Origin: an uncultured Isosphaeraceae bacterium
Lineage (GTDB): Bacteria > Planctomycetota > GCA-002687715
Reading direction: 5' to 3'
NCBI GenBank assembly: GCA_964507445.1
Contig: CAZDQF010000017.1
Coordinates: 28,613 to 92,612 of the forward strand
DNA length: 64,000 bases
In this document: one piece after another, positions 4,039-57,701 of the stretch
How the letters are laid out: every line of letters starts with the position of its first letter
Numbering within the stretch: position 1 is the first letter of the stretch
Translations under genes and position numbers: made by a program
The notes under the pieces: model-generated
Databases searched by the model: none
What the model saw: the letters and a program-made list of their open reading frames with translations, nothing else
What the model was told of the DNA's origin: nothing

Positions 4039-4040
4039 CC

Positions 4041-5666
<1,626 letters not shown>

Positions 5667-17696: not shown

Positions 17697-19103
17697 TCAG
17701 GGCAGGAACCCGCGGGGGTTCTTGAGCTTGGCCGGCAGGTACGTGTCCAGCACGTAGTTCAGGCCCCATTTGGCGAGGGCCTGCTGCTCCGCCCTGACCC
17801 CCATCTTCAGCAGCTGCTGCATGGCCTTCGTCCACGGCTTGTGGGCCTTGAAGAACGGGTCGTTCTTCAAGGCGTCCTTGGCCCGCCTCACGTCCACGTC
17901 CTTCAGCGGGTGGGTCGGCAGCTTGTAGTCCAGGATGTCCTGGGGAGTCACCCCCAGGAAGCGAGCCTTGGGGACGCAGTAGAACTGGTTGATGTGGGCG
18001 GCGTTGCCCGATCCCACCTTCAGGCTGCGGTAGATGTTGCTGATCCCATAGGGGTCGCAATCCACGAAGGCGTAAACGGGGATCTTCTGGCTGTCCGACA
18101 GACGCCGGATGAACCGGCGGCAGGCCCGGGTGGGGACCCCGCTCATGGAGACGATCACACAGCGGGCATTGGCCGGGTAGGCGTGGTACTGCAGGCGCTG
18201 GAACATGCCGCCCGTCTCGATGGCGAGGATGAACCGGGCCTTGGTCCTGAACTTCAGGTGCTCCACCGAGTGCGGGATGGTGTAGGCGCCGGACCCGAAC
18301 TGGGTGCAGTCGATCTCGATCTGCTTGCCGGTGGCCGGATCGCGATCGATCACCACCAGCTCTCCCGCCACGGCGCCGCCATGCTCGTCCGGATAGAAGC
18401 GGAGCTGTTCTCGGGTGACGCCATCGAGGGAGAAGGTCGCCTCGATGTCATCCATGACCGTGTCCGACTCGGTCTGCTGATCGAACCGGGCGTCCCCCCA
18501 GTTCTTGCTCTGGTAGTAAGCGTCCCGCTTGGTGGCGAACGTGTCCTCGCGCACCATCTCCTTGGACAAGGCCATCATCCGCAGGGTCTGGGCGAAGGTC
18601 CGCACCGTGTTCACGGTCAGGGTACGGGTCTTGCGCTGGCGACCGATCTGGAAATAGCCCACGCGAGCGTCGTAGCGGACGTTGGAGAGGGCCCGCACGG
18701 GCAGACTGAGCTCGGGCTTGGCGCCCCGCTTGATGCGGGCGTGCACGCCCGCCGCCGCCTTGTCGATGGCCACGACCACCTTGGCCTTCTTCCACGCGTC
18801 CCGGCGAGCCCGCCTGCGGGACGCCCCGCGGGCCCGGCCACCCACCCCTGGTGGTAAGCCCTGGGGTTCATCCGCCGACTCCTGCCGAGGCAGCTCGTCC
18901 GCGGCGGCGTAGGCTCGCTTCCGCACGCTGACCGTGGCCTCCAGAGCGGCCTTGGGGGACGAACGGCCGCCGGCCGCGGGCTTCTTCCTCGCGGCGGGCT
19001 TCTTCCTGCTCGCCTTCTTCTTCGCGGCGGGCTTCTTCCTGCTCACCTTCTTCTTCGCGGCGGGCTTCTTGCGCTTGGCTGCGACCTTCTTCTTTCCGGC
19101 CAT
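17697..19103 (-). CDS. top6A: DNA topoisomerase VI subunit A (Spo11/Top6A) with a Lys/Ala/Pro-rich N-terminal tail
   Basis: Toprim motif YAFVDCDPYGISNIYRSLKVGS and a winged-helix region (…TLVRTFAQTL…). The first 55 or so residues are KKPAAKKK-type repeats. Its start lies 1 nt after the top6B stop. Confidence 0.85.
   Translation of the reverse strand: MAGKKKVAAKRKKPAAKKKVSRKKPAAKKKASRKKPAARKKPAAGGRSSPKAALEATVSVRKRAYAAADELPRQESADEPQGLPPGVGGRARGASRRRARRDAWKKAKVVVAIDKAAAGVHARIKRGAKPELSLPVRALSNVRYDARVGYFQIGRQRKTRTLTVNTVRTFAQTLRMMALSKEMVREDTFATKRDAYYQSKNWGDARFDQQTESDTVMDDIEATFSLDGVTREQLRFYPDEHGGAVAGELVVIDRDPATGKQIEIDCTQFGSGAYTIPHSVEHLKFRTKARFILAIETGGMFQRLQYHAYPANARCVIVSMSGVPTRACRRFIRRLSDSQKIPVYAFVDCDPYGISNIYRSLKVGSGNAAHINQFYCVPKARFLGVTPQDILDYKLPTHPLKDVDVRRAKDALKNDPFFKAHKPWTKAMQQLLKMGVRAEQQALAKWGLNYVLDTYLPAKLKNPRGFLP
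18976..19075. repeat. Imperfect roughly 39-bp tandem duplication (gcgggcttcttcctgctc[g/a]ccttcttcttcgcggcg) that encodes the KKPAAKKK tail of Top6A
   Basis: Read from the sequence; it is coding. Confidence 0.6.
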
Positions 19104-19104
19104 C

Positions 19105-20775
19105 TCAGAGCTTCCGACTACGCTCGAGGATGTCCTCGAGCCTGGCCACGGCCTTGTCCGTGTCCTTGTCCGACAGCTCCAGGATCTCCTGGAGCGCCAC
19201 GCCGATCTGGGGCAGGTAACGGGAGATGAAGTCGCGCTTCTTCATCTCGTCCGCCTCACGACGGCGGCGGGAGAGGAAGGCCCCGAGCTTGCGTCCGCAC
19301 TCGTTGAGGGCGAGGCGGATCTCCTTGATGATCTCCGGGTAGTGCGCCACCGCCTCCTTGCTCTCCGAGGTGAAGGGCACCCAGACGGACGCCACGTGAA
19401 CCAGGACGGTCAACGGGCCAACGGGCAACGCGCCTCGCGACTGCTGCAGGCCGTAGTTCTTCCACGACGTCCCGACAATGGCCTTGTTGATGGCGCAGGC
19501 GCCGGGCTGATACAGCAAGGGCACCCGGTTGGCCAGACGGAGCACCCGGGCCAGGTCGTCCGCGGGGAGGCTCCCCCCCCAGGCGATGCCGGCTTCAACC
19601 ACGAACGGGTTGCCCCGGTAGACCGCGGGCGGACGGGTGACGGCGGTGAAGAAGTCCGCGTCCACTTCCTTCTTGAGCCCTTCCAGGATCAGGTCCTGGC
19701 CCACCGGGACGACGCAATCCGTGGCGGGCGCCATGACCCTCGTCTTCTGGATGGCCTTGTAGAGCAGGTCCGCCTCTCGATTGGCGATGGTCGTGGGGCG
19801 AGCCTTGGGCGAGATCCCCGCCTGTTCGCAGATGGCGTCCGCCACCGCCGCGGACACCCTCGAGAACGTGTCCTGCAGCGCCCCCTTGAGGGTGCGTGCG
19901 CCGCTCTCCTTCATGAGGCGTGCGAGCACCCCCAGCTCCACGCCATGGGGGTGAGGCTTGATCTGCCTGGCGGGTTCCGGGACCACCTTGCAAGCGCGCC
20001 TGAACACCACCAGCTCCTCCCCCGGAGCGCGGTAACTGATGGCGGCGTGGGGGTTGGCCATGGCGGTCTGCTGCAGGTACTCGTCCACGGACTGCCGCCC
20101 CTTCAGGTAGCGACCCTCCAGCTCGATCTCCACCCGGGTCCCCGACCCCTTGCGGAAGCCCTTGGCCTCCCGCTCCCGGGACACCTCCGGACGGTTACGG
20201 GCGGTGTCGATGCGCACGTCCATTCGCACCGCCTTCCCGGTCCTCGAGGTGCGCGTGGTGATGCGCATGGGCTTGCCCGTGGTCAGCTGCCCGTACATCC
20301 CGGCGGCGGAGATGCCGATCCCCTGCTGACCGCGGCTCTGCTTCAGGCTGTGGAACTTGGAACCGTACAGGAGCTTGCCGAAGATCTTCCCCACCTGCGC
20401 CTTGACGATCCCCGGACCGTTGTCCTCCACGGCGACCACGAAGCGGTCGTCCTCACCCTCCACGGGGATGATCTCCACCAGGATGTCCGGCAGGATCTCC
20501 GCCTCCTCACAGGCGTCCACGCTGTTGTCCACCGCCTCCTTGATGGTGGTCAGCAGCGCCTTGCGGGGGTTGTCGAAGCCGAGGAGGTGCCGATTCTTGG
20601 CGAAGAACTCGGACACCGAGATCTCGCGCTGGCCGCGGGCCATGGTCTCCGCCGTGGCCTTGGTGCGCCTCGCCTTGGAGCGGGAAGGGGCCGCGCCGGA
20701 CGAACGCCCGACCGCCTTCTTGCGAGGCCGCTTCTTCGCCGCTGCCTTCTTCTTCCTGCCGCCGCCGACCGCCAT
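19105..20775 (-). CDS. top6B: DNA topoisomerase VI subunit B (GHKL/Bergerat ATPase) with a Lys/Arg-rich N-terminal tail
   Basis: …SEFFAKNRHLLGFD…, the Bergerat-fold ATP-lid VEDNGPGI, …GQQGIGISAA…, and a transducer domain. The N-terminal 45 or so aa are RKKKAAAKKRPRKK. Confidence 0.85.
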   Translation of the reverse strand: MAVGGGRKKKAAAKKRPRKKAVGRSSGAAPSRSKARRTKATAETMARGQREISVSEFFAKNRHLLGFDNPRKALLTTIKEAVDNSVDACEEAEILPDILVEIIPVEGEDDRFVVAVEDNGPGIVKAQVGKIFGKLLYGSKFHSLKQSRGQQGIGISAAGMYGQLTTGKPMRITTRTSRTGKAVRMDVRIDTARNRPEVSREREAKGFRKGSGTRVEIELEGRYLKGRQSVDEYLQQTAMANPHAAISYRAPGEELVVFRRACKVVPEPARQIKPHPHGVELGVLARLMKESGARTLKGALQDTFSRVSAAVADAICEQAGISPKARPTTIANREADLLYKAIQKTRVMAPATDCVVPVGQDLILEGLKKEVDADFFTAVTRPPAVYRGNPFVVEAGIAWGGSLPADDLARVLRLANRVPLLYQPGACAINKAIVGTSWKNYGLQQSRGALPVGPLTVLVHVASVWVPFTSESKEAVAHYPEIIKEIRLALNECGRKLGAFLSRRRREADEMKKRDFISRYLPQIGVALQEILELSDKDTDKAVARLEDILERSRKL

Positions 20776-20817
20776 GGGCCGGTCAGTATAGCGGCTGCGG
20801 ACCGACCGGTGCCCGGC

Positions 20818-31723: not shown

Positions 31724-33670
31724 CTACTTCCAGTGGAACCGGGCCCGCTGCTTCACGTGGCAGTCACGGCAGGAGGCGTCCGATTCCGACGGGATCGGCA
31801 CGTCCTGGAGGCGCGAGGCCCCCTCGGTTCCCCGATGGCAATCGGCGCAGTCGGCGTCCACGTGGCCACGACTGCGGTGCGAGAAAGTGTTGGGCTGGGG
31901 CCAGGACCGCATGAGCTCGCCGCCGGTGTAGACCGGGTCCCCTTCCAGGTGACACGCGTCGCAGTCCCCGCCGCCCACGTTGTCATGGTTCTCGTGACAC
32001 GGCGTGCAGGATCTGGCCTCCGCCGTGGTGCCGGGCACACTTGAAGACCGCAGGTCGTCCCCCATGGTGTGGCAGGAGAAGCAACCGTTCTTAAGGCCGG
32101 GCTTGCTGGTGTCCAGGTGCTTGCCGTGGGGGAACTGGTTGACCCCGATCAACCCCGGCAGCCCCGGACGCAGGCCCGCCTCGGGGACGCCGGTGTCATG
32201 ACACTCCGCGCAGGCGGCGTCGCCCGCCGGCCCGCGGTAGATCCCCTTGGTCAATCCCGCCGACGCCTCCCCGGAGACCACGTCGAGGTGACATGACCGG
32301 CACTCGCCGTCCGCCGCCGCGTCCATGGACGAGAGGTGCACGCCGTGCAGGAACGGTCGGTCCGCGAGCTTCGAAGCAAACACCTTGCCGTCGCGATGAC
32401 AGTCCGCGCAATCCTTCCCGCCGGTGTCGAACTCGTGCTGATGGTCCCGCAGGGCCAGGGCGTAGACGTGGGCCCCCACCGTGAGCTCCGCCCGGGCCAG
32501 GCGCTCCACGGTCTTCAATGGAGCCGCGTGCAGGGTCTGGTGGCACTGGGCGCAGCTGACCCCCTGGTCCGCGTCCGCCCCGTGCCACGTCGCCTGCCAG
32601 CGCACCGCCTCCGGCGCCGCCTCCGACCCGTGGCACTCCTGGCAGCGCTCGTACTTGATGCGTTTGAACTCCCGCTCCGGGATGCCCCGCGATGGATCGG
32701 ACGCCTGGGCCACGTCCGCGTACTCGTGGCAGGTCTCACAATCCTCGATCCGCATGGCGCCGGCGCCCTCTCCCATGGCCTCCGCAGACAGGTGCTTGTC
32801 ATGGGGGAAGGTGTCGTAGGTCAGCGCCACCCAGGGGGTGTCGTCACGGGGAGGCACCGGCGCGGTGATCTCCGGGATCAGGTCTCCGTGGCAGTCCACG
32901 CACGTGTCCTCCGCGCGCACGGAGGTCAGGCTCGCCGTGTCCGTGCCGCGATGATCCACGTGACACGGCTGACACGATTGCCCGTCCCAGGAGACGGGGT
33001 GGGTCGGGTTCTCCACGATGTCCGCGTGGCAGGCGCTGCAGGCGGAGGGAGGTGTCCCCACCCAGCCCGAGTGGCACGCCGCGCACGAGCCGTCCCCGTG
33101 CCCCGCCGCCCGGAGCGCCGCCAGCTGCTCCGGCGCGTGGGTCGCCCAGTACCCCGGCGTGTGCACGCGGGCCAGGGAGCCGGGGTTCACCAGGGGCTCC
33201 TCCACGGCGTCCACGAACGACAGGGCGAACAGCGCGCCCACCAGCACCACGGCGGCGTAGTTGCCCCAGCGCAGAGGGCGGAACCGGCCGAACTCCACCT
33301 CGTAGCGAGACCACCGCAGCGGGTCCTCCTTCTTGTCATAGAAGAAGGACTGCTCCTTGAGGGCGCAGGTGAGGGTCCCCTTCTCCTCGTCGATCTCGCA
33401 GGTGAACTTGGAGACCCCGATGACGACGCCGATCTTGCCCTCGCCCTTGATCTCCGTGCGCTCGTCCACGGAGACCCCGGCCATGTAGGTCCCGGACGAG
33501 GTCCCCAGGTCCTCGATGAAGAAGCGGCCGTCTTCGTGGGTGAACGCACAGTGACGTTCCGCGACCATGGGGTCGTCCACCACCAGGTCGCAGGTGGAGC
33601 GTGTCCCCACCACCCCCGCGCGGTTCTCGATGGTGGCGGTCGCGCCTTTCTTCTTCAGGACAATCGCCAC
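31724..33670 (-). CDS. FHA domain - transmembrane helix - multiheme cytochrome c (15 CxxCH) fusion protein
   Basis: N-terminal FHA signature (VGTRSTCDLVVDDPMVAERHCAF…IEDLGTSSGTYMAGV), a TM segment (YAAVVLVGALFALSFV), then 15 CxxCH motifs. The probable start is GTG 33670, 1 nt after the upstream stop; the track ORF begins at GTG 33736. Confidence 0.8.
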   Translation of the reverse strand: MAIVLKKKGATATIENRAGVVGTRSTCDLVVDDPMVAERHCAFTHEDGRFFIEDLGTSSGTYMAGVSVDERTEIKGEGKIGVVIGVSKFTCEIDEEKGTLTCALKEQSFFYDKKEDPLRWSRYEVEFGRFRPLRWGNYAAVVLVGALFALSFVDAVEEPLVNPGSLARVHTPGYWATHAPEQLAALRAAGHGDGSCAACHSGWVGTPPSACSACHADIVENPTHPVSWDGQSCQPCHVDHRGTDTASLTSVRAEDTCVDCHGDLIPEITAPVPPRDDTPWVALTYDTFPHDKHLSAEAMGEGAGAMRIEDCETCHEYADVAQASDPSRGIPEREFKRIKYERCQECHGSEAAPEAVRWQATWHGADADQGVSCAQCHQTLHAAPLKTVERLARAELTVGAHVYALALRDHQHEFDTGGKDCADCHRDGKVFASKLADRPFLHGVHLSSMDAAADGECRSCHLDVVSGEASAGLTKGIYRGPAGDAACAECHDTGVPEAGLRPGLPGLIGVNQFPHGKHLDTSKPGLKNGCFSCHTMGDDLRSSSVPGTTAEARSCTPCHENHDNVGGGDCDACHLEGDPVYTGGELMRSWPQPNTFSHRSRGHVDADCADCHRGTEGASRLQDVPIPSESDASCRDCHVKQRARFHWK

Positions 33671-33671
33671 C

Positions 33672-35147
33672 CTACATCCCCACGATGTCCGCCGGGTCCA
33701 CCCTGGAGATGGCGCTGCACGGACAGTTATAGACACACGCTTCGAACGGCAGGCCCGCGCACAGGTCGCACTTGATGGCCTTCTTGTCGGGCTTCTTGGG
33801 TTTCTTGGGCTTCTCCGCCTCCTCCGAAGCCGCCTCCGGTTCCTGCGCCGGTGTCCCCTTGGAGCGCTTGATGAAGGGCAGCATGCGGGAGAAGAATGAG
33901 CGCCGCTCCTTCTCTTCGCCGCCGGGCTCCGTCAGGGTGGCCATGCGGATGACGCCGTAGGGGCACTTGATCTCGCACGCCATGCATCCGGTGCAGTTGG
34001 GCAGGATGAAGTGGATGGCGCCGTTGACGTCACGGCGGATGGCGCCGTAGTTGCAACCGATCATGCACTCGGGGACCGTGCAGTTGTAGCAGGCGCTGGT
34101 GAGCATGACGTCGCCGGTCTTGATGCCACGCTTGGACAACCGGGGGACACCGTCCTCGTGGACCGAGACGCAGGCCTCCACGCAGGCGTTGCATCGGGTG
34201 CAGCGCTTGAGATCGATGAGCAGGGCCTCCCCTCCCTTCACCGCCTCCTTGCCCACCATGAGGTCCATGGCCGCGGTCCTGGACAGGTCCACCACAGGCG
34301 CCGGGTCGTTCTTCACCTCCTGCCCCTGCTCCTGGGCCAGCAGCAATCCCACGGTCTGCTGGATGCGGGTCCCCGCCTGCACGTCGCGCTTGTACAGGGC
34401 CAGGAAGACCTCTCGGCGCAGCCGCACAACGTCCACCCGGGTCATGGCCACCATGCTGGATGGCCAGGTCTTGTCATCCGCCAGGGACCGCTCACCGAAG
34501 GAGGAGTTGTCCCGCAGGAACGCCACCACCTTGGAGCCCTCCGGCGTGGCCCGCTCTTCCTTGACGATGCCGCTGCGGACCAGATAGACGGCGTCCGCCT
34601 CCTTGCCCTCTTCTGCGATGGCCTTGCCCTCGGCGAACGTCAGCAGCTCCGCGTCCTCCGCCACGGCGGCGAGGACGTGACGATCAACGCCCTTGAACAC
34701 CGGCGCCGACCTCAGGTGGACCGCGAGGGCCCGCTCCCGGTATCGCTCGTCGATCAGGTCCCTGAACGACCCGCCGCCCTTGTAGAGGGTCTTGAACAGC
34801 GGCGCCCCCACCACCATCAGGGTGCAGTGGGCCTCCGCCTTCACGGTGCTGAACTGAGGCTGGTTGGCCAGGGCCGTCATCTCTCCGAACCAGTCATGGA
34901 CCCCGTGGGAACCCATGTTCTCGACGCTGCCGTCCGACTCCGTCCGGTAGGCGGTGGCGATGCCGTCCAACACCACGAACAGCTCTTCCAGGAACTCCCC
35001 CTGCCGGACCAGGGTGTCCCCTGGCATGGCTCGGCGAAACTCCACCTCGCTCTCAGCCGCAGCCATGGCCTTCGGCTTCACCTTGCCGAACAACGGGACC
35101 TGCGTCAGCAGGGCCTTGAGTTCTCCAAACTGCGCAGCGCCGCTCAT
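33672..35147 (-). CDS. Cytoplasmic protein with two cyclic-nucleotide-binding (cNMP) domains and C-terminal multi-cluster 4Fe-4S ferredoxin domains
   Basis: cNMP signatures (…WFGEMTAL…, …FGERSL…); Cys motifs CTRCNACVEAC, CYNCTVPECMIGC, CTGCMACEIKCP and CDLCAGLPFEACVYNCPC; no signal peptide. Confidence 0.8.
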   Translation of the reverse strand: MSGAAQFGELKALLTQVPLFGKVKPKAMAAAESEVEFRRAMPGDTLVRQGEFLEELFVVLDGIATAYRTESDGSVENMGSHGVHDWFGEMTALANQPQFSTVKAEAHCTLMVVGAPLFKTLYKGGGSFRDLIDERYRERALAVHLRSAPVFKGVDRHVLAAVAEDAELLTFAEGKAIAEEGKEADAVYLVRSGIVKEERATPEGSKVVAFLRDNSSFGERSLADDKTWPSSMVAMTRVDVVRLRREVFLALYKRDVQAGTRIQQTVGLLLAQEQGQEVKNDPAPVVDLSRTAAMDLMVGKEAVKGGEALLIDLKRCTRCNACVEACVSVHEDGVPRLSKRGIKTGDVMLTSACYNCTVPECMIGCNYGAIRRDVNGAIHFILPNCTGCMACEIKCPYGVIRMATLTEPGGEEKERRSFFSRMLPFIKRSKGTPAQEPEAASEEAEKPKKPKKPDKKAIKCDLCAGLPFEACVYNCPCSAISRVDPADIVGM

Positions 35148-35149
35148 GA

Positions 35150-36160
35150 TCAGTACCAGATCACCGAGACCGTGTGGACGATGGCGAAGCCGAGCAGCAA
35201 CAACGAGCAGGGCACGTGGACGACGCGCCAGACGTTGATGCTGAACTTGACCCGGGCAGCGGCGGCCAGGTCATCGAGGATCCGGCGTCGCTGGGAGACC
35301 AGCACCATGACATCTTGCAGATCCTGCCGCCCCTCAGGCGCCTCCTCCATCATGCTCATGAGAGCGGTGCGGTGCACCAGGGCCCGGGTCGTCGCCTTCC
35401 CCGCCCCCTTGAGCCGCTTCACCTCGTGCGCGTCCAGCCCATCGTAGGCTTCCCGGATCTTGGCCTTCAGGCTCCGCTCCAGCACGAAGGCCTGCTCGTG
35501 GTTCATGTCGCGCTCCGCGCGGGTCATCCAACGCGGGCCCAGGGCGAACAACACCGTACCGACGACGCCGGTGACGATGACCAGCACGGCCAGCCCGTTG
35601 AGGATCACCCCCATGGGCGAGACCATGGAGAACCCTCCGTGGACCCACAAGGTGACGCCGGAAGCCAGACCCAGGTAGACGTGGAAGTGGAGCCACCTGG
35701 ACATGCGCCCGAGGGGTTCCGTGGGCTCCACCCCGACGATGAACGCCGGTCCACCGACCGCTCCCGGAGTGACCTTGGCCTTACAGATCCGATCGGCCCC
35801 GTGAGCCGCCAACTCCCGCTGCGCCATCTCCCTGATCTCGGCGGCGTTGTTCAGCAACCCCAGGAGCACCCGGCGTCGGATGTCGTTCAGGCCTTGCTCC
35901 GCCTGCTCCAGCTGCTCCAGGGGCACCTTCAGCTTGAACTCGGGCGAGATCCCCAGGCGATGCATGAACTTGCGCAGAGAGTAGACGCAAACCGCCACCA
36001 TGATCCCCAACGTGGTCCACCCACTGGCGAGCACGATGTCCACGTCGGAGCCTTCCCGGGCCCCCGCAGCGCTCCCAGCGGCCGCCAACCACCAGACGAA
36101 CCCGCCTGACACGATGACGGCGACCACGGACCACCAGCTCCTGAACAGGGAGACGTTCAC
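35150..36160 (-). CDS. 5-TM integral membrane protein with conserved intramembrane histidines (possible b-type haem or quinone-interacting subunit)
   Basis: TM helices containing WLHFHVYLG…WVHGG and RVVHVPCSLLLLGFAIVHTV. It overlaps the upstream gene by 4 nt and sits 2 nt from the downstream gene. Confidence 0.55.
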   Translation of the reverse strand: MNVSLFRSWWSVVAVIVSGGFVWWLAAAGSAAGAREGSDVDIVLASGWTTLGIMVAVCVYSLRKFMHRLGISPEFKLKVPLEQLEQAEQGLNDIRRRVLLGLLNNAAEIREMAQRELAAHGADRICKAKVTPGAVGGPAFIVGVEPTEPLGRMSRWLHFHVYLGLASGVTLWVHGGFSMVSPMGVILNGLAVLVIVTGVVGTVLFALGPRWMTRAERDMNHEQAFVLERSLKAKIREAYDGLDAHEVKRLKGAGKATTRALVHRTALMSMMEEAPEGRQDLQDVMVLVSQRRRILDDLAAAARVKFSINVWRVVHVPCSLLLLGFAIVHTVSVIWY

Positions 36161-38193
36161 CGGCGTCTCCCAGGGAAGCCATCGAGCTCGCCGCCGAGCG
36201 ATTCAGCGATCCGCCTCCACTCCGGACGCGTCTTCCCCGAACCGGTGAGCCCCTTCTCGATCAGCTCGTGCCAGTGGCAGTCCGCACAACCTTCCGGGTC
36301 GCTCCGGGACGCCTGCCGCGCGCCCCTGTGATAGCCGTTGCGCTCGTACTTCATGTCCGCATGGACCAGCACGTCCTCCCGGACGTTGAACACGGCCGCG
36401 CCGGGCAGGTGGCAGGTGCCGCACTTCTGTTCCGCCGGATAGGGGTGCCACTGAGCCCCGGCGACGCCCGTCACCCGGACCCGGAAATCGCTCACCGCGA
36501 CGTCCGCCTCGGGGCCGTCAGGGCCGTGGCAACGGGCGCAGGACTGGACGTAGTCCCTCCCCTTGTCCGCGCAGATCTCCGGACGCTCGCCGTGGTCGTG
36601 GCACGCCGAGCAGTCCATGGCGCCGGGCAGGGTCCCGACCCCTGGCGCCCCTCCCTGCGCCGGCACGTGGCAGGACACGCAACCGTCCTCGAGGAGCGGG
36701 TCTCTCAACGCCTTCGCCGTCATGTGGACGTCGTGGGGGAACGTCGGCACCCTGCGAGGAGCCACCGTCTCCTCGCTCCGGATCACGCTCAGCTCGCCGC
36801 CCTTGTGACACTCTCCGCACGCCTTGTCGGAGTAGAGGCTCAGGTCCTCGGGCCGGGTCGACCCCGTGATGTCGCCGTGGCAGGCCACACAGTCCTGGTT
36901 GGTGGGGTTCGGCGGCAGGTGGGTGTCATGAGAGAACGCCTTGCCGCTGATACGAGAGGGCAGCCCGCCCTCGATCCTGGCCCGATGGCACTTGCGACAG
37001 TCTTCCCCCTGCACCAGCTTCCCGCCCCGGCGGGTGATCATGGGGTGGTCGTGGCTGGTCACGGCGAACCCCACCGGCCGGGTCCGCGACACCTCCACCT
37101 GGGGGCGGAGAGTCTTCATGGGGCCGTCGCCGAAGGCGTGGCACGGCGCGCAGCTCTCCACCTTGCCGTGGTCGTCGATTCCCTGGGCGTCCCGCACCGC
37201 CAGCGGGTTGTCCTCGAGGCGGTCGTGGCATTCCGCGCAGGCGCTGTAACGGCGCTCCCGGAACTTGCTCTGCAGCCCGTAGGTGCGGCCTTCCTCCGCC
37301 GGCTCGTGGCAGGCGAGGCACCCCTTGGAGCGCAACGCCGGGTCCTTGTTCAGCGCATCCGCGTCCATGTGAGGACCGTGGGGGAAGGTCCCCAACAGGA
37401 CACACTCGTGAGCAGCGCGTTCCAGCTGCTCGGGCCCCAGCAGTCCCTCCCCCGACCGGTCCTTGTGACAGTCGGCGCAAGAGTCCAGCTTCACCATGGA
37501 GGGGCCGATGGCGGCGCCTGGGTCCGTGAGGAGATCGCCGTGGCATGTCCCGCACGCCGCCGCGTCCGCGCCGCTGCCCGCGGGCAGGTGCTCATCGTGG
37601 CGAAACGCCGCGGGCCGAGGGCCCGTCGCCTTGCCGAGGTAGGCGTTCAGTCCATCGACGAATTCGACGTTCTTCGTCCCCGACGGGTCGGCGTCGATGG
37701 CGTTCGCACCCTCCGGATCGTGACACTCGAAGCAGGTGTGCCACCCGGGCCGGAACTTGATGTCACCGCGCCTGCCCAGATCATCCGGGCGTCCGGAAGC
37801 CCCCTCGTGGCATCGCTTGCAGTCGTAGGCCGCATGGGACCAGTGCCTGAACGGACGCCCGTCAGCGCGGAGCACGTCCAGGTCTTCCAGGAACGACGGA
37901 CTCGTGTCCTCTCGGTCGAGCTCCAGGGCTGGGGCGCCTCCGCCGCTGCTGTGGCAGGCGTCGCACACCTGCTGCGGGTCCCGGGTCTCGGTCTCGCTCT
38001 TGTAGAGATGGCAGCCCCGACAATCCCTGGCGTATTCGCTGCCGCCCTCCTGGCGCCAGCCCGCACGGACGTGGTCCGCGTGTCGAAACGGCTTGCTGGT
38101 CGACGGCGGCGAGTCGCTCCGCTCGTTGGAGGACGGCACCATCAGGACGAGCTGGGCGGTGGTCACAACCGCCAGGGCCAGAGACCGTCCCAT
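36157..38193 (-). CDS. Secreted multiheme cytochrome c (17 CxxCH)
   Basis: ATG at 38193 precedes a signal peptide (MGRSLALAVVTTAQLVLMVP); 17 CxxCH motifs. The start lies 2 nt after the stop of the tandem-FHA gene. Confidence 0.8.
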   Translation of the reverse strand: MGRSLALAVVTTAQLVLMVPSSNERSDSPPSTSKPFRHADHVRAGWRQEGGSEYARDCRGCHLYKSETETRDPQQVCDACHSSGGGAPALELDREDTSPSFLEDLDVLRADGRPFRHWSHAAYDCKRCHEGASGRPDDLGRRGDIKFRPGWHTCFECHDPEGANAIDADPSGTKNVEFVDGLNAYLGKATGPRPAAFRHDEHLPAGSGADAAACGTCHGDLLTDPGAAIGPSMVKLDSCADCHKDRSGEGLLGPEQLERAAHECVLLGTFPHGPHMDADALNKDPALRSKGCLACHEPAEEGRTYGLQSKFRERRYSACAECHDRLEDNPLAVRDAQGIDDHGKVESCAPCHAFGDGPMKTLRPQVEVSRTRPVGFAVTSHDHPMITRRGGKLVQGEDCRKCHRARIEGGLPSRISGKAFSHDTHLPPNPTNQDCVACHGDITGSTRPEDLSLYSDKACGECHKGGELSVIRSEETVAPRRVPTFPHDVHMTAKALRDPLLEDGCVSCHVPAQGGAPGVGTLPGAMDCSACHDHGERPEICADKGRDYVQSCARCHGPDGPEADVAVSDFRVRVTGVAGAQWHPYPAEQKCGTCHLPGAAVFNVREDVLVHADMKYERNGYHRGARQASRSDPEGCADCHWHELIEKGLTGSGKTRPEWRRIAESLGGELDGFPGRRR

Positions 38194-38195
38194 GG

Positions 38196-39707
38196 TCACG
38201 CGCCGATCCCCAGCACCGCCGGGAACCAGAAGAACAGCACCACGAGGACGACGAGTAGAAGCGCGAGCGCCACGACCGCGACCTTCAGCCCTGCGCCGCC
38301 ACCGCTCTGCTGCCGCATGACGCTCAGGAACGGAGCCTTCGCCATGGCATCGCACCACTGAGCCACCGTCACCCGACCCGACAACAGCAGCGCCTCGCCC
38401 GGGTGCTCCGAATCCGATGCCGCCTCTGCGCTCACCCGCTTCATGGCCGACGCGCTCACCACGTCCTCCGCCGAGAGGATCTCCAACGCATCATGCCAAC
38501 TCTGAACGGAGACGCGGTTCCCGCCGCTGCCCACGTCCGCGACCCAGAGCGCGTCCACGGTTCCGAACCGGACATGGGTGTCCGGATGGAGCTCTCGAGG
38601 CTGATCCGGCATCACCCGATCGGGACCCAAGAACGTGCCGTTGCGGCTGTCCAGATCGTGCAGGAAGAACCGCCCACCCTGGAACCGGATCCGGGCGTGG
38701 GTCGAGGAGACCGCGTCGTGAGACAACCGGCAATGGACACCCTTCTCCTGGTCGTCACTCCTCCCCACCACGACGTTGGGGCCGGAGATATCAAACCGGG
38801 TTCGGATGGCCTCCGTGGCGATGATCAACCGGGCGTTCGCAACCCGGAACGCCGCCATCTCCGCCAGCCCCGCCGCAGCACCCGCCTCCGCCAGCGCTTG
38901 ACCGACGCCATGAGCGAACACGGTCCGCGGTTCGGACGGGGCCGGGCGAGGCTCCTCCGCTTCCGCCTCCTTGGCCGCCGCTTCCTTCGCCGCAGCTTCC
39001 TTGGCCGCCGCCTCCTTGGCCGCCGCCTCCTTGGCCGCCGCCTCCTTGGCCGCCGCTTCCTTGGCCGCCGCTTCCTTGGCCGCCGCCTCCTTGGCCGCAG
39101 CTTCCTTGGCCGCAGCTTCCTTGGCCGCAGCTTCCTTGGCCGCCGCTTCCTTGGCCGCCGCTTCCTTCGCCGCCGCTTCCTTCGCTGCCGCTTCCTTCGC
39201 CGCCGCTTCCTTCGCCGCCGCTTCCTTGGCCGCCGCTTCCTTGGCCGCCGCTTCCCTGGCCTTCTCTGCTTCGAGGCTCCGGATCTTCTCTGCCGCCAAC
39301 CTCGCCTGTTCGGCCGCCGCTCGCGCCTGCTCAGCGACCGCACCGGGCAGCGTGCTCTGCTCGGCGAAGGCGAGCTCCGCTGCGCTGCCCGTCCCCTCCT
39401 GAGGCCCACCCGACACGACGATCGTGGTTCGGCCGATGGTGAGAGTCAGCCCACAGCGGATGGGGTAGGACTCGCCATCGCTGAGGATGGGGCCGGACTC
39501 AATGAGGGTCTTGTTCGTGCTACCACAATCCAGAATCGCGAGGCCACCGTCGACGCCCTCGGCGAACTTGGCGTGAAACGCCGACGCCTTCGCATCATCA
39601 AGAACGAGGTCGTTGCTCGGATGACGTCCTACTCGAAGACCGGCGTGACACGGGACGGTCCTCGGTGCCTTGTCGGGCTCCTCAACCCGCAATTCCCACT
39701 TGCTCAT
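38196..39707 (-). CDS. Tail-anchored protein with two FHA domains separated by an (A/E)AAKE pentapeptide-repeat spacer
   Basis: N-terminal FHA (LRVGRHPSNDLVLDDAKASAFHA…ILDCGSTNKT) and C-terminal FHA (VVVGRSDDQ…VSSTHARIRF…LHDLDSRNGTF); about 21 copies of KEAAA; a C-terminal TM helix (VAVVALALLLVVLVVLFFWF). Confidence 0.8.
   Translation of the reverse strand: MSKWELRVEEPDKAPRTVPCHAGLRVGRHPSNDLVLDDAKASAFHAKFAEGVDGGLAILDCGSTNKTLIESGPILSDGESYPIRCGLTLTIGRTTIVVSGGPQEGTGSAAELAFAEQSTLPGAVAEQARAAAEQARLAAEKIRSLEAEKAREAAAKEAAAKEAAAKEAAAKEAAAKEAAAKEAAAKEAAAKEAAAKEAAAKEAAAKEAAAKEAAAKEAAAKEAAAKEAAAKEAAAKEAAAKEAAAKEAEAEEPRPAPSEPRTVFAHGVGQALAEAGAAAGLAEMAAFRVANARLIIATEAIRTRFDISGPNVVVGRSDDQEKGVHCRLSHDAVSSTHARIRFQGGRFFLHDLDSRNGTFLGPDRVMPDQPRELHPDTHVRFGTVDALWVADVGSGGNRVSVQSWHDALEILSAEDVVSASAMKRVSAEAASDSEHPGEALLLSGRVTVAQWCDAMAKAPFLSVMRQQSGGGAGLKVAVVALALLLVVLVVLFFWFPAVLGIGA
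38942..39260. repeat. About 21 copies of a 15-bp tandem repeat (gccgccgcttccttg and variants) encoding the (KEAAA)n spacer
   Basis: Read from the sequence (39001-39240 is almost pure repeat); coding, in frame. Confidence 0.8.
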
Positions 39708-39757: not shown

Positions 39758-43618
<3,861 letters not shown>

Positions 43619-43630
43619 CTTCCGACTCCC

Positions 43631-45556
43631 CTACCAGGTGAACGTGAGCTCAGCGAACGCGTGCCACAGCAGATCGTCGCTCTCGTAGATCTTCCGCAAC
43701 CCACCGCCGGGCCTGAGCACAGAGCCACCGAAGGTGAAGATGATGTTGTTGGTCAACAGCGGCCGGTACTGGACCCCCATGAGGGCCTCCACGCCGATGT
43801 CACGGGGGATCTCCTCCAGCTCCACCAACGTCTCCAGCGGGTTGGTGGTGGCGAAGCGCAGCCCCTGAATCGCGGCCGTCATCTTCACCGTCGGGGTGAG
43901 CTCGATGTCCGTGCCGATGCCGTAGATGGCGATGCCCGGATTGACGAACGCCGCCTGCCCCTCGAACTTGGACGCCTGCAGGTCCGCCAGCGGGCTCAGC
44001 CTGTTGGTCAGGAAGGTCCCGAACAGGGGCACCGCCTGACGGTTCCAGTAGGAGAACTCGCCGCCGGCGAAGTTGGGAGCGTCCACGATGGCGTCGAATC
44101 CGCCGCCCTTGCCGTCTCGCGCGTCGTGGTCGCCAGACCCGTAGAACACGTAGGCCTTGAGCCGGAACCAGTCCCAGTCATAGGAGACCTCCACGGCCGC
44201 CAGCTGCGCGTCGATGTCGATCTCCCGCGCGGCGATGGGGTCTTCCGTGTCGTGCCCCCAGACCTGGTAGACGGCCCCCGTGAGGTTGAAGCGTCCGATG
44301 TGGCCGTCGAACGCCCACCCCAGGTAGTAGGTGTCGATCTCGTGCTCCTGGAAGCTCCCGATGGGGGTCGGTCGCGTCAGGAAGTCGTTGTCGTTGAAGT
44401 GGACCCCGCCGCCGTCGTGGCTCCAATGGAACGACAGCTCCTGATTGAATCCCTTGAAGGGGAAGTCGAAGCGGTAGACGTTGGCGATCAGCACCTCCTG
44501 GTTGCGATCATCGAACGTGTTGAGCTCCGAGTTGGTGTTCTTCTCCAGCAGGTGGAAGTAGGCCAGGTTGTACTGCCACTTGTTGTCGTCCGCGTTGCCG
44601 AAGATCCGGGCGCCCAGATTCACGTCGTCAAAGATGAAGCCTCGGAAGTCACTCCGAAACTCGAGGATCCCCGCCTCGAAAGACAAGAAGTCGTAGCGGT
44701 CGTTCCAGTCCAGCAGGTGGATCTCGATGAACGCTTCTTCCAGCGCGATGTCGTCGGTCAGGCGATCCGTGCCCTGCCCGGGGTTGATGTTGACCCCGCC
44801 GGTCTCTTCCAGGTTCAGGTAGGTGACGTTGGCGGCGAGGACCGCCTTCAACCGCCAGTCCACGGGCTTGAAGAACTGCTGGCCCTTGAAGATGTCGATC
44901 TCCAGGGCGGTGATGTTCAGGAGGAAGTCCTGGTTCCCGTCACCGAAGAAGGGCTCGTTGTTGGGAACGGGGCCGGTGTTCCCGGTGCCGATGGGCACCT
45001 TGCGCGTCTCCAGGATGGAGAAGCTCTCCAGCTCCAGGGAGAGGAACACGTCATCGCCGATGATGGGGTAGTCCCCCTTCAGCGTGTTCAGGTTGTACGG
45101 GTCGAGGGAGCTCTTCCCCTTGTTGATCACGTAGGCGGGGTTGAACAGGGGGACCGGGTCAATGGCCCAGCGATCAGGCATGGGCTCGAAGTGACGCGGC
45201 TTCTCCTGGGGAGCGGTCACCGGCTTGCTCTCGGCGACGGTCACCGGCTTGCTCTCGGCGACGGCCACCGGCTTGCTCTCGGCGACGGCCACCAGCTTGC
45301 TCTCGGCGACGGCCACCGGCTTGCTCTCGGCGACGGCCACCGGCTTGCTCTCGGCGACGGCCACCGGCTTGCTCGACGCCACCGGACGGTCAACCGCCAC
45401 GGGGTCCGACCCAACCCGCGAGCCCACCATGGTCGGCTCAGGATGCGGAGGGTCCTCCGGCGGGGGCCGGTGCCCAGCGCTGGAGCAGGCCGCAACCAAC
45501 AACACGCAACCCCCAAGGCACGACCGCCCCAGGAATCTCCGCGAGCTTGTATCCAT
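43631..45556 (-). CDS. Putative outer-membrane beta-barrel (porin-like) lipoprotein with an N-terminal (ESKPVAVA)n repeat
   Basis: Lipobox LLVAAC; a G/D/N/aromatic-rich body with alternating hydrophobics; C-terminal …AFAELTFTW-COOH, the aromatic terminus typical of OMPs. It ends 12 nt upstream of the lipoprotein cytochrome gene. Confidence 0.6.
   Translation of the reverse strand: MDTSSRRFLGRSCLGGCVLLVAACSSAGHRPPPEDPPHPEPTMVGSRVGSDPVAVDRPVASSKPVAVAESKPVAVAESKPVAVAESKLVAVAESKPVAVAESKPVTVAESKPVTAPQEKPRHFEPMPDRWAIDPVPLFNPAYVINKGKSSLDPYNLNTLKGDYPIIGDDVFLSLELESFSILETRKVPIGTGNTGPVPNNEPFFGDGNQDFLLNITALEIDIFKGQQFFKPVDWRLKAVLAANVTYLNLEETGGVNINPGQGTDRLTDDIALEEAFIEIHLLDWNDRYDFLSFEAGILEFRSDFRGFIFDDVNLGARIFGNADDNKWQYNLAYFHLLEKNTNSELNTFDDRNQEVLIANVYRFDFPFKGFNQELSFHWSHDGGGVHFNDNDFLTRPTPIGSFQEHEIDTYYLGWAFDGHIGRFNLTGAVYQVWGHDTEDPIAAREIDIDAQLAAVEVSYDWDWFRLKAYVFYGSGDHDARDGKGGGFDAIVDAPNFAGGEFSYWNRQAVPLFGTFLTNRLSPLADLQASKFEGQAAFVNPGIAIYGIGTDIELTPTVKMTAAIQGLRFATTNPLETLVELEEIPRDIGVEALMGVQYRPLLTNNIIFTFGGSVLRPGGGLRKIYESDDLLWHAFAELTFTW
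45205..45394. repeat. About 7 copies of a 24-bp tandem repeat (ctcggcgacggccaccggcttgct) encoding ESKPVAVA
   Basis: Read from the sequence; coding, in frame. Confidence 0.75.
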
Positions 45557-45767: not shown

Positions 45768-47498
45768 ATGAGAGAGAACTGCGTCCTGATCCGGCCGGCG
45801 GTCACCGTGCTGCTGATGCTGTGCCTCGGCACCACCCTCGGTTGCGGAGGCGCCGGCGGAGATGTGCCCGGGCAGTTGTTCTCCCCCGACTTCGGGACCG
45901 TAGATCCCCTGACGGCGGCGGACGTTCAGCTCATCGTCGAACGCGCGGTCGCCTCCATCGCGGCTCCCGATTTCCACGTGGCGGTCGTGGACCGACGCGG
46001 ATTTCCTCTCGCCGCGTTCAGCACCGCCGGCCCCGCCATCACCGACGAGGCGAACATCGCCCTGAGCCTCGCCCGCACCACGGCGTTCTTCTCCAACAGC
46101 CAGGCGCCGTTGACGTCGCGCACGGTCCAGGCCATCTCCACCTTCCACTTCCCGGCCACCTTCGGCAACGCCTTCGTACCCTCGGTCTGTCCCACCTCGG
46201 GGGTCGCCGGGTGCATGGACACGGCCATCGCTCCGCAGCAGGCCACCACCGGAGTGGACGGGACCCCGCAAGGGCCCCTGTGGCAGATCAACGCCACCAA
46301 CCGGGGGGCTCCCATCGCCGATCCGGATGGGCTCCCCAACTTCAACCTCCCGGTACAGACCGTCCGCCCGACGTTCTTCAACCCGGGACAGCAGTACCCG
46401 CGGTCCACCAACCTGGACGGCACGTTCCCGAGCCCCGGCATCACGGTGCTGCCCGGAGCCGTCCCCCTGTACAAGGACAACCTGGAGGGGACCATGAAGC
46501 GGCTGGTGGGCGGCGTCGGTGTCTTCATCCGGCCCGGCGGCGCCGCCGCGGACCCGGACATCCTGGGGGCGGAGTTCGCCGCGTTGAGCGGAGCCACCGG
46601 CGTCCCCGCTGGGGGGCCCACAGACTTCCGTCTGCCGGGGGTCCCCAACACGGGCGCGGTCTACCTGAACGGCATCCTCCTGCCCAACGTGGAGCAGACC
46701 ACCCTGCCCGCCGGCGCAGCGCCAGGGGCCCCGCCGCCACCGCCGGGTGACCCGCTCTGGATCGTGAACCCCATGGCCGGCGATGTCCCTGCCGACGGCT
46801 ACCTCATCGGCCCCCGGGCCAGCATGGAACCCAACGGGCCCACCCTCGCGGAGGTCATGCAGGTCATCGACCAGTGCCAGGCGACGGCGGACCTGAACCG
46901 CTCCGCCATCCGCCTTCCTCTGGGCAGCACCTCCAAGATCATCGCCACCGTGGTGGATACACGGGGCCTGATCCTCGCCCACTTCCGTATGGAGGACACC
47001 CTGACGGACGCCGTGGACGTGGTCCCCGCGAAGGCCCGCACCGTGGCCTACTACAGCCAACCCGGCGGTCCAGCGGCAGCGGATCAGTGGCCCGGGTTCC
47101 CCGTGGACCCGGTGAACGGGGTCGCCGTCACCACCACAGCCCTCGGCTTCCTGTCCCAGCCCTACTACCCGCCGGGCATCAGCTCCTCCGGCGTCCAGGG
47201 CCCCCTGTTCCCGCGCGCCGTGGACAACCAGCTCCCCGTGCAGGCCACCCTCATGGGCGCCGCGCCGCCGGACCCGGGCTACCAGAACGGCCTGATCTTC
47301 TTCCCGGGGGCGGTCCCCCTCTACCGCAACGGGGTGCTCATCGGCGCCCTCGGGGTCTCCGGAGACGGGGTCGAGAACAACGACTTCATCGCCGCCGGAG
47401 GAGCGGTCTCCTTCGAGCCTCCCCCGGCCCTCCGGATCGACAACTTCTTCTTCGACGGGGTGCGGATCCCCTACCTGAAGTTCCCCACCAACCCCTGA
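45768..47498 (+). CDS. Lipoprotein with two GlcG/HbpS-like (DUF336, haem/tetrapyrrole-binding-type) domains
   Basis: Lipobox LGCG; two copies of the GAVPL(Y)…GVSG…D…A motif (GAVPLYKDN…LVGGVGVF and GAVPLYRNGVLIGALGVSGDGVENNDFIAAGG). It is divergent from the porin-cytochrome operon. Confidence 0.55.
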   Translation: MRENCVLIRPAVTVLLMLCLGTTLGCGGAGGDVPGQLFSPDFGTVDPLTAADVQLIVERAVASIAAPDFHVAVVDRRGFPLAAFSTAGPAITDEANIALSLARTTAFFSNSQAPLTSRTVQAISTFHFPATFGNAFVPSVCPTSGVAGCMDTAIAPQQATTGVDGTPQGPLWQINATNRGAPIADPDGLPNFNLPVQTVRPTFFNPGQQYPRSTNLDGTFPSPGITVLPGAVPLYKDNLEGTMKRLVGGVGVFIRPGGAAADPDILGAEFAALSGATGVPAGGPTDFRLPGVPNTGAVYLNGILLPNVEQTTLPAGAAPGAPPPPPGDPLWIVNPMAGDVPADGYLIGPRASMEPNGPTLAEVMQVIDQCQATADLNRSAIRLPLGSTSKIIATVVDTRGLILAHFRMEDTLTDAVDVVPAKARTVAYYSQPGGPAAADQWPGFPVDPVNGVAVTTTALGFLSQPYYPPGISSSGVQGPLFPRAVDNQLPVQATLMGAAPPDPGYQNGLIFFPGAVPLYRNGVLIGALGVSGDGVENNDFIAAGGAVSFEPPPALRIDNFFFDGVRIPYLKFPTNP

Positions 47499-54885: not shown

Positions 54886-55059
54886 CCGCACGAGCCCCAG
54901 GAGACGACCCCATCCGATCCCCCCAGGAGGGGCTGCCCTCACGGTCGGCCCCCCGTGTCCGCTCCTCAACCCGCAAAACCCTTTGCGTCCGGCGGCCGTA
55001 TCGGTCGATAAACCCATTGGTGGTGGGACCGTGCCCTCACTCGAGGCACGAGGGGAACC

Positions 55060-55980
55060 GTGAGCTTGGACTTCAGTCGCTATCTGTCACCCGCCGGAGA
55101 TCCGGCGGGGAATCGGACGACCTCCATGGTCGCTCCGGCACGTCTGCGATCCGTCCAGGAGCTGGTCCGCCGCCTGCCACCGCTCCCCGGCATGATGTTC
55201 GAGTTGATCACCGAGCTGGGGGAACCGGACGCCGAGATCGACCGGCTGGAAGATCACATCTCCCGCGACCCCACCCTGACCACCCGCTTGCTGAAGATGG
55301 CCAACAGCGCCTTCTTCGCGCCGGCCGTACCCGTGGCCACCGTCGGCCACGCCCTCATGATCCTCGGGCTGGACGCCGCCCGAAACCTGGTCCTCGCCAC
55401 CGCCATGAGGGCCGCCATGGGCGCTTCACGATCCTCGCCGACGCACCAGGGAAGAGAGGTCTTCCGCCACAGCCTCGCCGTCGCCATCGCAGCCCGTCGA
55501 CTGTGCCGACTGCGAGACACCCGTGACCCGCACGAACCCGACCCGTTCGTAGCGGGCCTGCTCCACGATGTCGGCCTGGTAGCCCTCGCGCCGCTCTACG
55601 CCAACGAGGCGGGCGTCCTGGAATCCGCCGGAGGGCTCTCACCGGAGGTGGAACGGAGCGTCCTGGGGATTGACCACGTCCTCGCGGGACGCATGGTGCA
55701 CGCCCACTGGAAACTCCCCGACTCCCTGCTGGACCCGATCCTCGGCCACCACTCCGATCCACGAGACCTGGATGGAGGGTCCACCACCACCATCGTCGCC
55801 CTGGCCGACGCCCACGCGGAGGCCACGGGATGGGAGCCTCACCCGGCCACGAACCGTCACGGCGCCCTGGAGCGGCGAGACGCCATCATCGCCCACGTCG
55901 GTCTCGAACCGGACCGAGTCCATGACGTCCTCGACGGCATGGAGCAGGAGTTCGCCAGCTTCCTGGGGTCCGCGTCATGA
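55060..55980 (+). CDS. HDOD-domain signalling protein
   Basis: …DPTLTTRLLKMANSAFF… and GLLHDVG are characteristic of HDOD. Confidence 0.75.
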   Translation: MSLDFSRYLSPAGDPAGNRTTSMVAPARLRSVQELVRRLPPLPGMMFELITELGEPDAEIDRLEDHISRDPTLTTRLLKMANSAFFAPAVPVATVGHALMILGLDAARNLVLATAMRAAMGASRSSPTHQGREVFRHSLAVAIAARRLCRLRDTRDPHEPDPFVAGLLHDVGLVALAPLYANEAGVLESAGGLSPEVERSVLGIDHVLAGRMVHAHWKLPDSLLDPILGHHSDPRDLDGGSTTTIVALADAHAEATGWEPHPATNRHGALERRDAIIAHVGLEPDRVHDVLDGMEQEFASFLGSAS

Positions 55981-57626: not shown

Positions 57627-57701
57627 GCGGGCTCGGCCGGCGTCCCTCCGGTGATGACAACCGGGGCGCACGGATCGCCCGCGAGTCCGTAGAATGGGCT
57701 C

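Follow-up and report, generated by a model that had tools for sequence, protein, structure and literature searches.

An FHA-fold, membrane-anchored 15-haem cytochrome in a conserved Planctomycetota gene cluster: probably not a phosphothreonine reader, and a candidate subunit of a transmembrane electron conduit

What is an FHA domain doing on an electron carrier? The question is raised by a 64,000-nt stretch of DNA from an uncultured Isosphaeraceae bacterium of the Planctomycetota (contig CAZDQF010000017.1), called here the window, by which we mean the whole stretch. The last gene of an operon in the window (31724..33670, minus strand) encodes a 648-residue protein in which an FHA domain, a single transmembrane helix, and a 15-haem c-type cytochrome follow one another. 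The first-pass annotation of this gene pictured a phosphothreonine reader in the cytoplasm tethered directly to a periplasmic electron carrier, and called the fusion highly unusual. Our analysis points to a different role for the FHA domain. With a probability of roughly one half, we consider the protein to be the membrane-anchored c-cytochrome subunit of a transmembrane electron conduit, in which the FHA fold would act as a phospho-independent docking module. What the data show directly are the domains present, the signals of topology, the residues lost, the order of the genes and how far it is conserved, and the invariant histidines described below. Taken as a system the locus is of more interest than as a single fusion, since a degenerate FHA fold appears to anchor a multihaem cytochrome in what would be an uncharacterised transmembrane redox complex.

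Examination of the gene start left little room for doubt about the fusion. The GTG start codon at 33670 follows the stop codon of the gene upstream (33672..35147) by 1 nt, with a GGGGA Shine-Dalgarno-like run ahead of it. Starting instead at the GTG at 33736 would give a longer frame that runs into the upstream gene, and none of the homologues starts there. Met1 is shared by 22/22 aligned homologues, within a conserved N-terminus. Among 5.8 billion proteins searched, full-length homologues ranged from 100% to about 22% identity, and a profile run against 1.84 billion cluster representatives gave well over 100 end-to-end matches of 500-800 residues. The fusion architecture and its start were conserved in more than 140 representatives (50% identity clusters) drawn from independent assemblies. 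We classified the architectures of the profile-search representatives and protein-search homologues together with the window protein itself; 83 were FHA-helix-15 haem proteins, 27 were FHA-helix-10 haem proteins, and 12-13 had a second helix and a second FHA domain after 10 haems, with smaller groups carrying 9, 13, 14, or 16 haems. In three close homologues the identity of the FHA and cytochrome regions was 75/66, 72/54, and 62/51%, respectively. By this measure the conservation of the FHA region equals or exceeds that of the cytochrome region, which argues that the FHA region is translated and under purifying selection.

The fusion proposed from the sequence was therefore borne out by the open reading frame, Pfam matches, hydropathy, the CxxCH count, and homologues alike. 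Had a sequencing frameshift joined two genes, or did the true start lie downstream of the FHA-coding region, the protein would be an artefact. We found no support for this beyond a GC-rich region with alternative GTG codons, and the recurrence of the architecture over the full range of identities, the invariant Met1, the conservation of the FHA region above that of the cytochrome region, and the coupling of the start codon to the upstream stop together rule out both versions; we assign the artefact a negligible probability.

The N-terminal domain (residues ~10-107; 33350..33643, minus strand) matched Pfam PF00498 (FHA) over residues 20-74 with an E value of 5.9e-12 and 46.3 bits, against a cutoff of 20.7, and the Pfam Yop-YscD_cpl model, which comes from type III secretion, also scored above its cutoff on the protein (35.5 bits versus 33.2). 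AlphaFold2 modeled residues ~10-107 as an all-beta domain with a predicted local distance difference test (pLDDT) score of 79-90, followed by a helix at residues 131-150. Foldseek matched the N-terminus to many solved FHA domains with a probability of 1.00, so that the eleven-stranded beta-sandwich defining the FHA fold is supported by model and structural search together.

The sole hydrophobic segment of the protein separates this domain from the cytochrome. The 19-residue Kyte-Doolittle average reached its maximum of 2.16 at residues 138-156, compared with 0.67 for the best segment elsewhere, and we place the single transmembrane helix at residues ~136-156 (33203..33265, minus strand). Five Lys or Arg residues precede the helix and one follows it, indicating an N-in/C-out signal anchor. 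Independent support for this orientation came from the 12-13 relatives with two helices, in which the second helix returns the chain to the cytoplasm, where it ends in a second FHA domain; the FHA domains would accordingly be cytoplasmic and the haem domain outside. The N-in topology put forward in the first-pass annotation, with the only helix lying between the two domains, thus agrees with hydropathy, flanking charges, and the two-FHA relatives.

The predicted periplasmic part (31727..33184, minus strand) has an invariant histidine, His170, just outside the membrane, followed by CxxCH motifs numbering exactly 15 (residues 196 to 638). Pfam models Cytochrome_C7 (79.3 bits versus a cutoff of 24.8) and Mtrc-MtrF_II-IV (60.9 versus 30) were both exceeded, and Paired_CXXCH was matched as well; these profiles, the motif count, and the position after an N-in signal-anchor helix identify a multihaem c-type cytochrome of the c7/c3 type. 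The protein is not a member of the DmsE/MtrA decahaem family TIGR03508, scoring 62.8 bits against a cutoff of 192.2. His170 closes a P-G-x-L-x-x-x-H motif (residues 163-170; encoded at 33161..33184, minus strand) and lies ~14 residues past the membrane helix; it was present in 22/22 sequences, and Pro163 and Gly164 were nearly invariant. The profile run against cluster representatives also yielded giant multihaem proteins of 2,200-5,300 residues with 55-120 CxxCH motifs (P0065, P0163, P0171, P0194, and others), which are built from repeats of the haem module of the FHA-cytochrome.

Whether the FHA domain could read phosphothreonine was judged from the five residues that form the canonical pocket, namely Gly-Arg in the beta3-4 loop, Ser-x-x-His in the beta4-5 loop, and Asn in the beta6-7 loop. 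The window domain shares the fold of GarA/OdhI, FhaA, and Rv1747 and has detectable similarity to them by Foldseek and, for GarA, by HMMER alignment (E 2.4e-5). Where GarA has the pocket Arg, Ser, and Asn, however, the window protein has Thr23, Ala37, and Ser59, and only Gly22 and His40 are kept, or two of the five. The same losses extend across the 104 members of the clade with at least 13 haems, in which the canonical Arg was found in 6, the Ser in 12, and the Asn in none. An Arg does occur one position past the canonical site (Arg24 in the window protein), but in only 53/104 (51%) of this clade, and it is therefore not a conserved substitute. The conservation of Ala37 at 77% points to a loss that is stable and not to drift.

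Control domains from the same systems behaved differently. The C-terminal FHA domain of the relatives with a second helix retained G, R, S, H, and N in 14/14 sequences, and none of the five canonical residues is missing from either FHA domain of the 2xFHA proteins, which these operons encode separately. In the 10-haem sister clade the arginine of the GR pair was kept in 42/44. For the Usitatibacter/Burkholderiales clade, Pfam lists no FHA domain among the listed members, save for one Yop-YscD_cpl match; the N-terminal FHA-like domain of Usitatibacter rugosus is too decayed for Pfam detection. Judged from its residues, the N-terminal domain of the window protein is an FHA fold that has given up its phosphate pocket, and it probably does not read phosphothreonine. 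The description "FHA domain-containing protein" should hence not be equated with phosphothreonine signalling unless the pocket residues have been checked.

Examination of the surrounding DNA revealed seven co-oriented genes on the minus strand separated by gaps of -4 to +50 nt, with the FHA-cytochrome gene last and an eighth conserved gene running divergently. The order from 5' to 3' is a ~640-residue protein, a 10-haem protein with LVIVD repeats, the 2xFHA protein, a 17-haem cytochrome, a membrane protein with five transmembrane helices (5-TM), an Fe-S protein, and the FHA-cytochrome. No intrinsic terminator was found on the minus strand in the intergenic gaps of the operon, and a promoter and terminator scan gave no promoter-like site and about as many terminator-like matches as expected by chance. 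The last three genes were adjacent in the window and in the related loci L001, L003-L008, and L011-L013, which is to say in every locus on a long enough contig. The full gene order recurs in L008, a 4.3-Mb metagenomic contig, and, as far as the contigs extend, in Planctomycetota metagenome-assembled genomes (L001, L003, L011-L013), with rearranged versions in Thermoanaerobaculia and other metagenome-assembled genomes (L004, L005, L007). A profile search of genome contigs with one of our alignments (A5) gave six loci, all from Planctomycetota, and the core of the cluster recurs in Thermoanaerobaculia and Usitatibacter.

The 5-TM protein encoded two genes upstream of the FHA-cytochrome (336 residues; 35150..36160, minus strand) matched no Pfam or NCBIfam family, and our assignment of it comes from invariant residues and helix positions. 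Two of its histidines, H160 and H174, lie in the third transmembrane helix and two more, H315 and H329, in the fifth, each pair in H-x13-H spacing. No exception to these four was seen in 30 sequences reaching down to 21% identity, and Usitatibacter keeps them as well. An invariant R63, a nearly invariant K64, and Arg or Lys residues ahead of the third and fifth helices follow the positive-inside rule and indicate that these two helices run parallel. Consequently H160 and H315 would sit at one depth near the cytoplasm, and H174 and H329 at another near the periplasm. Two histidine pairs spaced ~13 residues apart on two parallel helices are the ligand pattern of dihaem transmembrane b cytochromes, as seen in helices B and D of cytochrome b and in TM3 and TM5 of NOX/FRD. 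The pattern suggests that the 5-TM protein is a putative dihaem b cytochrome. His170 of the FHA-cytochrome is in turn a candidate distal ligand of a membrane-proximal haem, and could face the periplasmic-side histidine pair of the 5-TM protein.

Between these two genes lies that of the Fe-S protein (491 residues; 33672..35147, minus strand), in which Pfam, NCBIfam, and PDB comparisons recognized two domains with the cyclic nucleotide monophosphate (cNMP)-binding fold and a four-cluster module of the DmsB/ArrB type. The 16 cysteines are arranged as CxxCxxCxxxC, CxxCx4Cx3C, CxxCxxCxxxCP, and CxxCx7Cx3CP, and residues 309-479 align to the four-cluster subunit ArrB (PDB 6cz7_B, E 5.7e-9). The protein has no signal peptide, and its N-terminal domains are of a cytoplasmic type. 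Distant orthologues (L004, L005, L007) add an N-terminal Pyr_redox_2 (FAD/NAD(P)H) domain, by which the Fe-S protein is marked as the cytoplasmic end of the chain. Both cNMP folds of the window protein are without the Arg of the phosphate-binding cassette, reading PQFSTV and WPSSMVA at residues ~80-100 and ~215-235, whereas this Arg is kept in the orthologues of the 10-haem clade (RRTASA, ERTATV) and in L006. Together with the loss of the FHA pocket, the absence of both cassette arginines indicates that the window lineage seems to have lost the ligand-binding residues in both of its "sensor" domains.

These proteins can be arranged into an electron path that would work in either direction. A cytoplasmic wire of four [4Fe-4S] clusters in the Fe-S protein would exchange electrons with two b haems held by the histidines of the 5-TM protein, the one at H160/H315 toward the cytoplasm and the other at H174/H329 toward the periplasm. 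From there the path would run along the 15-haem and 17-haem periplasmic wires and reach the LVIVD 10-haem protein and, putatively, a barrel in the outer membrane. The FHA fold would lie at the cytoplasmic face and tie the helix of the cytochrome to the cytoplasmic parts of the complex; having lost the residues that hold phosphothreonine, it would most likely serve phospho-independent docking or scaffolding. It could dock onto the Fe-S subunit, onto cytoplasmic inserts of the 5-TM protein, or onto the 2xFHA protein. Phosphorylation input, if there is any, could arrive through the separate, tail-anchored 2xFHA protein. Haem b binding, the formation of a complex, the direction of electron flow, and the partner of the FHA fold are points in this scheme that we infer.

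Several observations weigh against this arrangement. In the close Planctomycetota group the peptide-binding loops of the FHA domain are well conserved (GTRSTCDL, DDPMVAExH, DLGTSSGTY), from which it follows that the surface probably still binds something, and that something may be a non-canonical phospho-ligand. The cluster of Usitatibacter rugosus has no adjacent Fe-S gene, so the Fe-S subunit is not universally required. The full-length AlphaFold2 model gave low confidence for the cytochrome domain (overall pLDDT 60.6), and as such a model is unreliable without haems, we drew no conclusions on the fold of that domain.

The first-pass annotation took the FHA domain to be a working phosphothreonine reader. 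On such a model a Ser/Thr kinase would phosphorylate a partner, or the cytochrome itself, and phosphothreonine binding would switch assembly or activity of the periplasmic carrier. The fold is indeed confirmed, with a Pfam FHA match above threshold; Gly22, His40, and Gly60-Thr61 are retained, Arg24 beside the canonical site occurs in the close clade, and the 10-haem sister clade keeps its GR arginine. The operons also have genes for canonical FHA proteins, and one related locus, L007, carries a Ser/Thr protein kinase gene (Pkinase) inside the cluster at 3929..5380. Against this, the window protein has other residues at three of the five pocket positions, the canonical residues are rare or absent there throughout the 104-member clade with an alternative Arg in only half of it, Ala37 is conserved in most members, and the listed Usitatibacter members are without a Pfam FHA domain apart from the single Yop-YscD_cpl match. 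No Ser/Thr kinase was found in the 64-kb window, either with the regular expression HRDLKxxN or by Pfam scans of all 41 large open reading frames. The claim of a phosphothreonine reader is not supported by these results, and we regard this reading as distinctly improbable.

A further alternative comes from a 2026 preprint on the nonahaem protein NHC, in which the cytochrome is taken to be a quinol dehydrogenase or quinone reductase resembling NapC/NirT/CymA, the 5-TM and Fe-S proteins being accessory and the FHA domain regulatory (10.64898/2026.01.22.701106). The single helix would then place the first haem at the membrane surface for direct electron exchange with the quinone pool. This is argued in the preprint, and it accords with the single N-terminal anchor helix ahead of a multihaem c-type domain, with the invariant His170 a short way past that helix, and with a weak partial match to NrfH at 37.4 bits. 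That match falls well below the cutoff of the NrfH model (TIGR03153; 134.2), however, and lies at residues 529-640, far from the helix, directly after which the NapC/NirT (NrfH/CymA) family has its tetrahaem core; the first CxxCH lies 40 residues beyond the helix. Quinone exchange at this point also leaves the always-adjacent 5-TM protein with its four invariant intramembrane histidines unexplained. We consider it unlikely as an account of the window protein. The conduit with a docking FHA fold, which we prefer, may be extended to a bolder proposal that we put forward tentatively and at less than even odds. The cluster would represent a previously unrecognised class of envelope-spanning conduit, leading from a cytoplasmic four-cluster Fe-S protein, which in some lineages bears an NAD(P)H/FAD domain, through a new dihaem-b family and FHA-anchored wires to the LVIVD protein and barrel, with the FHA and cNMP folds turned into structural "pseudo-sensors" in Planctomycetota, and with sister lineages that remain ligand-competent and have kinases or cyclases nearby.

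Signalling enzymes do occur with some of the related loci. A CHASE2-adenylate/guanylate cyclase is encoded at 14157..15290 of L005, and L006 has an FHA-GAF-cyclase and a class II cNMP phosphodiesterase at 662..3380; the window is without the flanking signalling enzymes of the L005, L006, and L007 clusters.

The architecture had been seen before, but was not explained. A 2023 pangenome table of Gallionellaceae lists a "Forkhead-associated protein" with 10 CXXCH motifs in 27 genomes (PMC9900912). The 2026 preprint describes NHC from Ferrigenium straubiae as an FHA, one-helix, multihaem protein forming a trio with 5-TM and [4Fe-4S] proteins, finds the trio expressed under all tested conditions, and states that FHA and multihaem domains had not been reported together before (10.64898/2026.01.22.701106). 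NHC has been put forward as a marker for nitrate-reducing Fe(II) oxidisers. As these two records exist and the family is widespread in metagenomes, the label "highly unusual" was an overstatement. The window protein has the features of the NHC type, namely an FHA domain, one helix, and a multihaem c-type domain without a signal peptide, with the 5-TM and Fe-S genes directly upstream. The likeness to the NHC and Gallionellaceae clusters thus takes in a cytosolic FHA domain, a single helix, a periplasmic multihaem cytochrome, and the neighbouring [4Fe-4S] protein and 5-TM protein without recognised motifs. The window differs in having 15 haems rather than 9-10, a degenerate FHA pocket, and a host in the Planctomycetota, and its operon goes beyond theirs with the 17-haem cytochrome, the 2xFHA protein, the LVIVD 10-haem protein, the putative barrel, and an HbpS-like protein. 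No Gallionellaceae appeared among the best 120 matches of a search started from the Usitatibacter cytochrome P0022, and the likeness to Ferrigenium is one of architecture.

What we add is an account of how large and widespread the family is, and of how its phosphothreonine pocket has been lost systematically while other FHA domains of these systems remain intact. We further describe the quartet of invariant histidines in the 5-TM partner, the four clusters of the Fe-S partner, and the larger conserved gene set. Only for a few models, among them Shewanella, Geobacter, and Desulfovibrio, are the routes by which electrons cross the inner membrane toward periplasmic or extracellular acceptors understood in detail. 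The present cluster occurs in Planctomycetota, Thermoanaerobaculia, and Usitatibacter, and by its architecture matches a cluster of the iron-oxidising Gallionellaceae. Should the 5-TM protein prove to represent a new dihaem-b family, and the FHA fold to be a docking module and not a phospho-reader, the scheme would become a testable model for a widespread respiratory module and for NHC.

Among known systems, the Tmc and Hmc complexes of Desulfovibrio (TmcABCD, HmcABCDEF) join a periplasmic multihaem cytochrome c (16 haems in HmcA), a dihaem b subunit, and cytoplasmic Fe-S proteins across the inner membrane. By analogy the window cluster would have the same layout, with cytoplasmic Fe-S clusters, a two-haem step in the membrane, and a periplasmic multihaem c. 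It differs in that the proposed b subunit comes from an unrelated family that has no Pfam entry, the cytochrome carries an FHA domain, and the Fe-S subunit is DmsB/ArrB-like with cNMP folds and not HdrD/CCG-like. Model scores likewise place the window proteins outside the Tmc/Hmc families, at 56.7 versus a cutoff of 114 for TmcA (with the 17-haem neighbour) and 20.4 versus 420 for HmcB (with the Fe-S protein). As in NrfH/CymA (NapC/NirT), ImcH, and CbcL, a multihaem c anchored in the inner membrane would start a periplasmic electron chain. CbcL of Geobacter also has a dihaem b module joined to its multihaem c module; in the window, unlike in these proteins, two distinct polypeptides would provide the b and the c module, and the cluster adds an Fe-S subunit and an FHA domain, both cytoplasmic.

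For the FHA fold itself, the closest parallel may be found in secretion systems. FHA-like domains that do not have the phosphothreonine-binding residues serve docking in YscD/EscD/PrgH of type III and EssC of type VII systems. These proteins share with the FHA-cytochrome an N-terminal cytoplasmic FHA fold, a transmembrane helix, and a large extracytoplasmic domain, but in the window protein the extracytoplasmic part is a redox protein and not the ring of a secretion system.

Usitatibacter rugosus is a cultured betaproteobacterium and a possible experimental host; its cytochrome clade is large, with more than 340 matches. The search from P0022 recovered this large Usitatibacter/Burkholderiales clade. 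In the U. rugosus genome (CP053069.1, L015, 2075399-2093147) genes for the 5-TM protein, the cytochrome, and HbpS-like, ~640-residue, LVIVD, and c554-like proteins lie directly beside the ccm cytochrome-maturation operon.

The remaining genes of the window operon were assigned as follows. Immediately upstream of the 5-TM gene is that of the 17-haem cytochrome c (36157..38193, minus strand; 678 residues from an ATG at 38193), which is predicted to be periplasmic, has an N-terminal signal or anchor, and is present in loci of the 15-haem clade. The 2xFHA protein (38196..39707, minus strand; 503 residues), assigned from its reading frame and Pfam matches, has intact GR, SxxH, and N residues, an (AAKEA)n linker, and a C-terminal transmembrane helix that would anchor its tail. 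The linker is encoded by a 15-nt in-frame tandem repeat of ~20 copies at 38963..39261. Beyond it lies the gene for the LVIVD protein (39758..43618, minus strand; 1286 residues), which is secreted, carries 10 CxxCH motifs and LVIVD beta-propeller repeats, and has weak similarity to ExtM; it is conserved in L003, L004, L005, L007, L008, and L015.

The operon begins with the ~640-residue protein (43631..45556, minus strand), which has no recognised family, a lipobox (LVAAC), and ESKPVAVA repeats. Its C-terminus, ending in AELTFTW, resembles that of an outer-membrane beta-barrel, and from this feature we regard it as a putative outer-membrane protein. A counterpart of the same size and position is found in L004, L005, L007, L008, and L015. 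Its repeats, (ESKPVAVA)n near the N-terminus, come from a 24-nt in-frame tandem repeat of ~6.7 copies at 45214..45374. Both this and the 15-nt repeat are near-perfect, and both likely vary in length between strains. PDB sequence searches with the LVIVD cytochrome and with a 652-residue protein returned nothing useful. The divergent gene (45768..47498, plus strand) encodes a secreted, HbpS-like protein of the haem-binding/degrading fold according to Pfam, and is conserved with the cluster in L004, L005, L007, L008, and L015.

Elsewhere in the window, an HDOD-domain protein is encoded within 55012..57626 (plus strand), followed by a GAF-SpoIIE (PP2C-type) phosphatase at 55926..57626, the only phospho-signalling enzyme seen in the window and ~22 kb from the operon. 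Directly beyond, at 57693..61300 (plus strand), a PSCyt1/PSCyt2/PSD1 protein adjoins a DUF1501 protein; this is the signature gene pair of Planctomycetota and speaks for the taxonomic origin of the window. Topoisomerase VI is mainly an archaeal and eukaryotic enzyme, and both subunits of this type IIB topoisomerase are encoded at 17697..20817 (minus strand), with matches to Top6A/Spo11 (Toprim, E 7.7e-55) and Top6B (transducer, E 3.2e-58).

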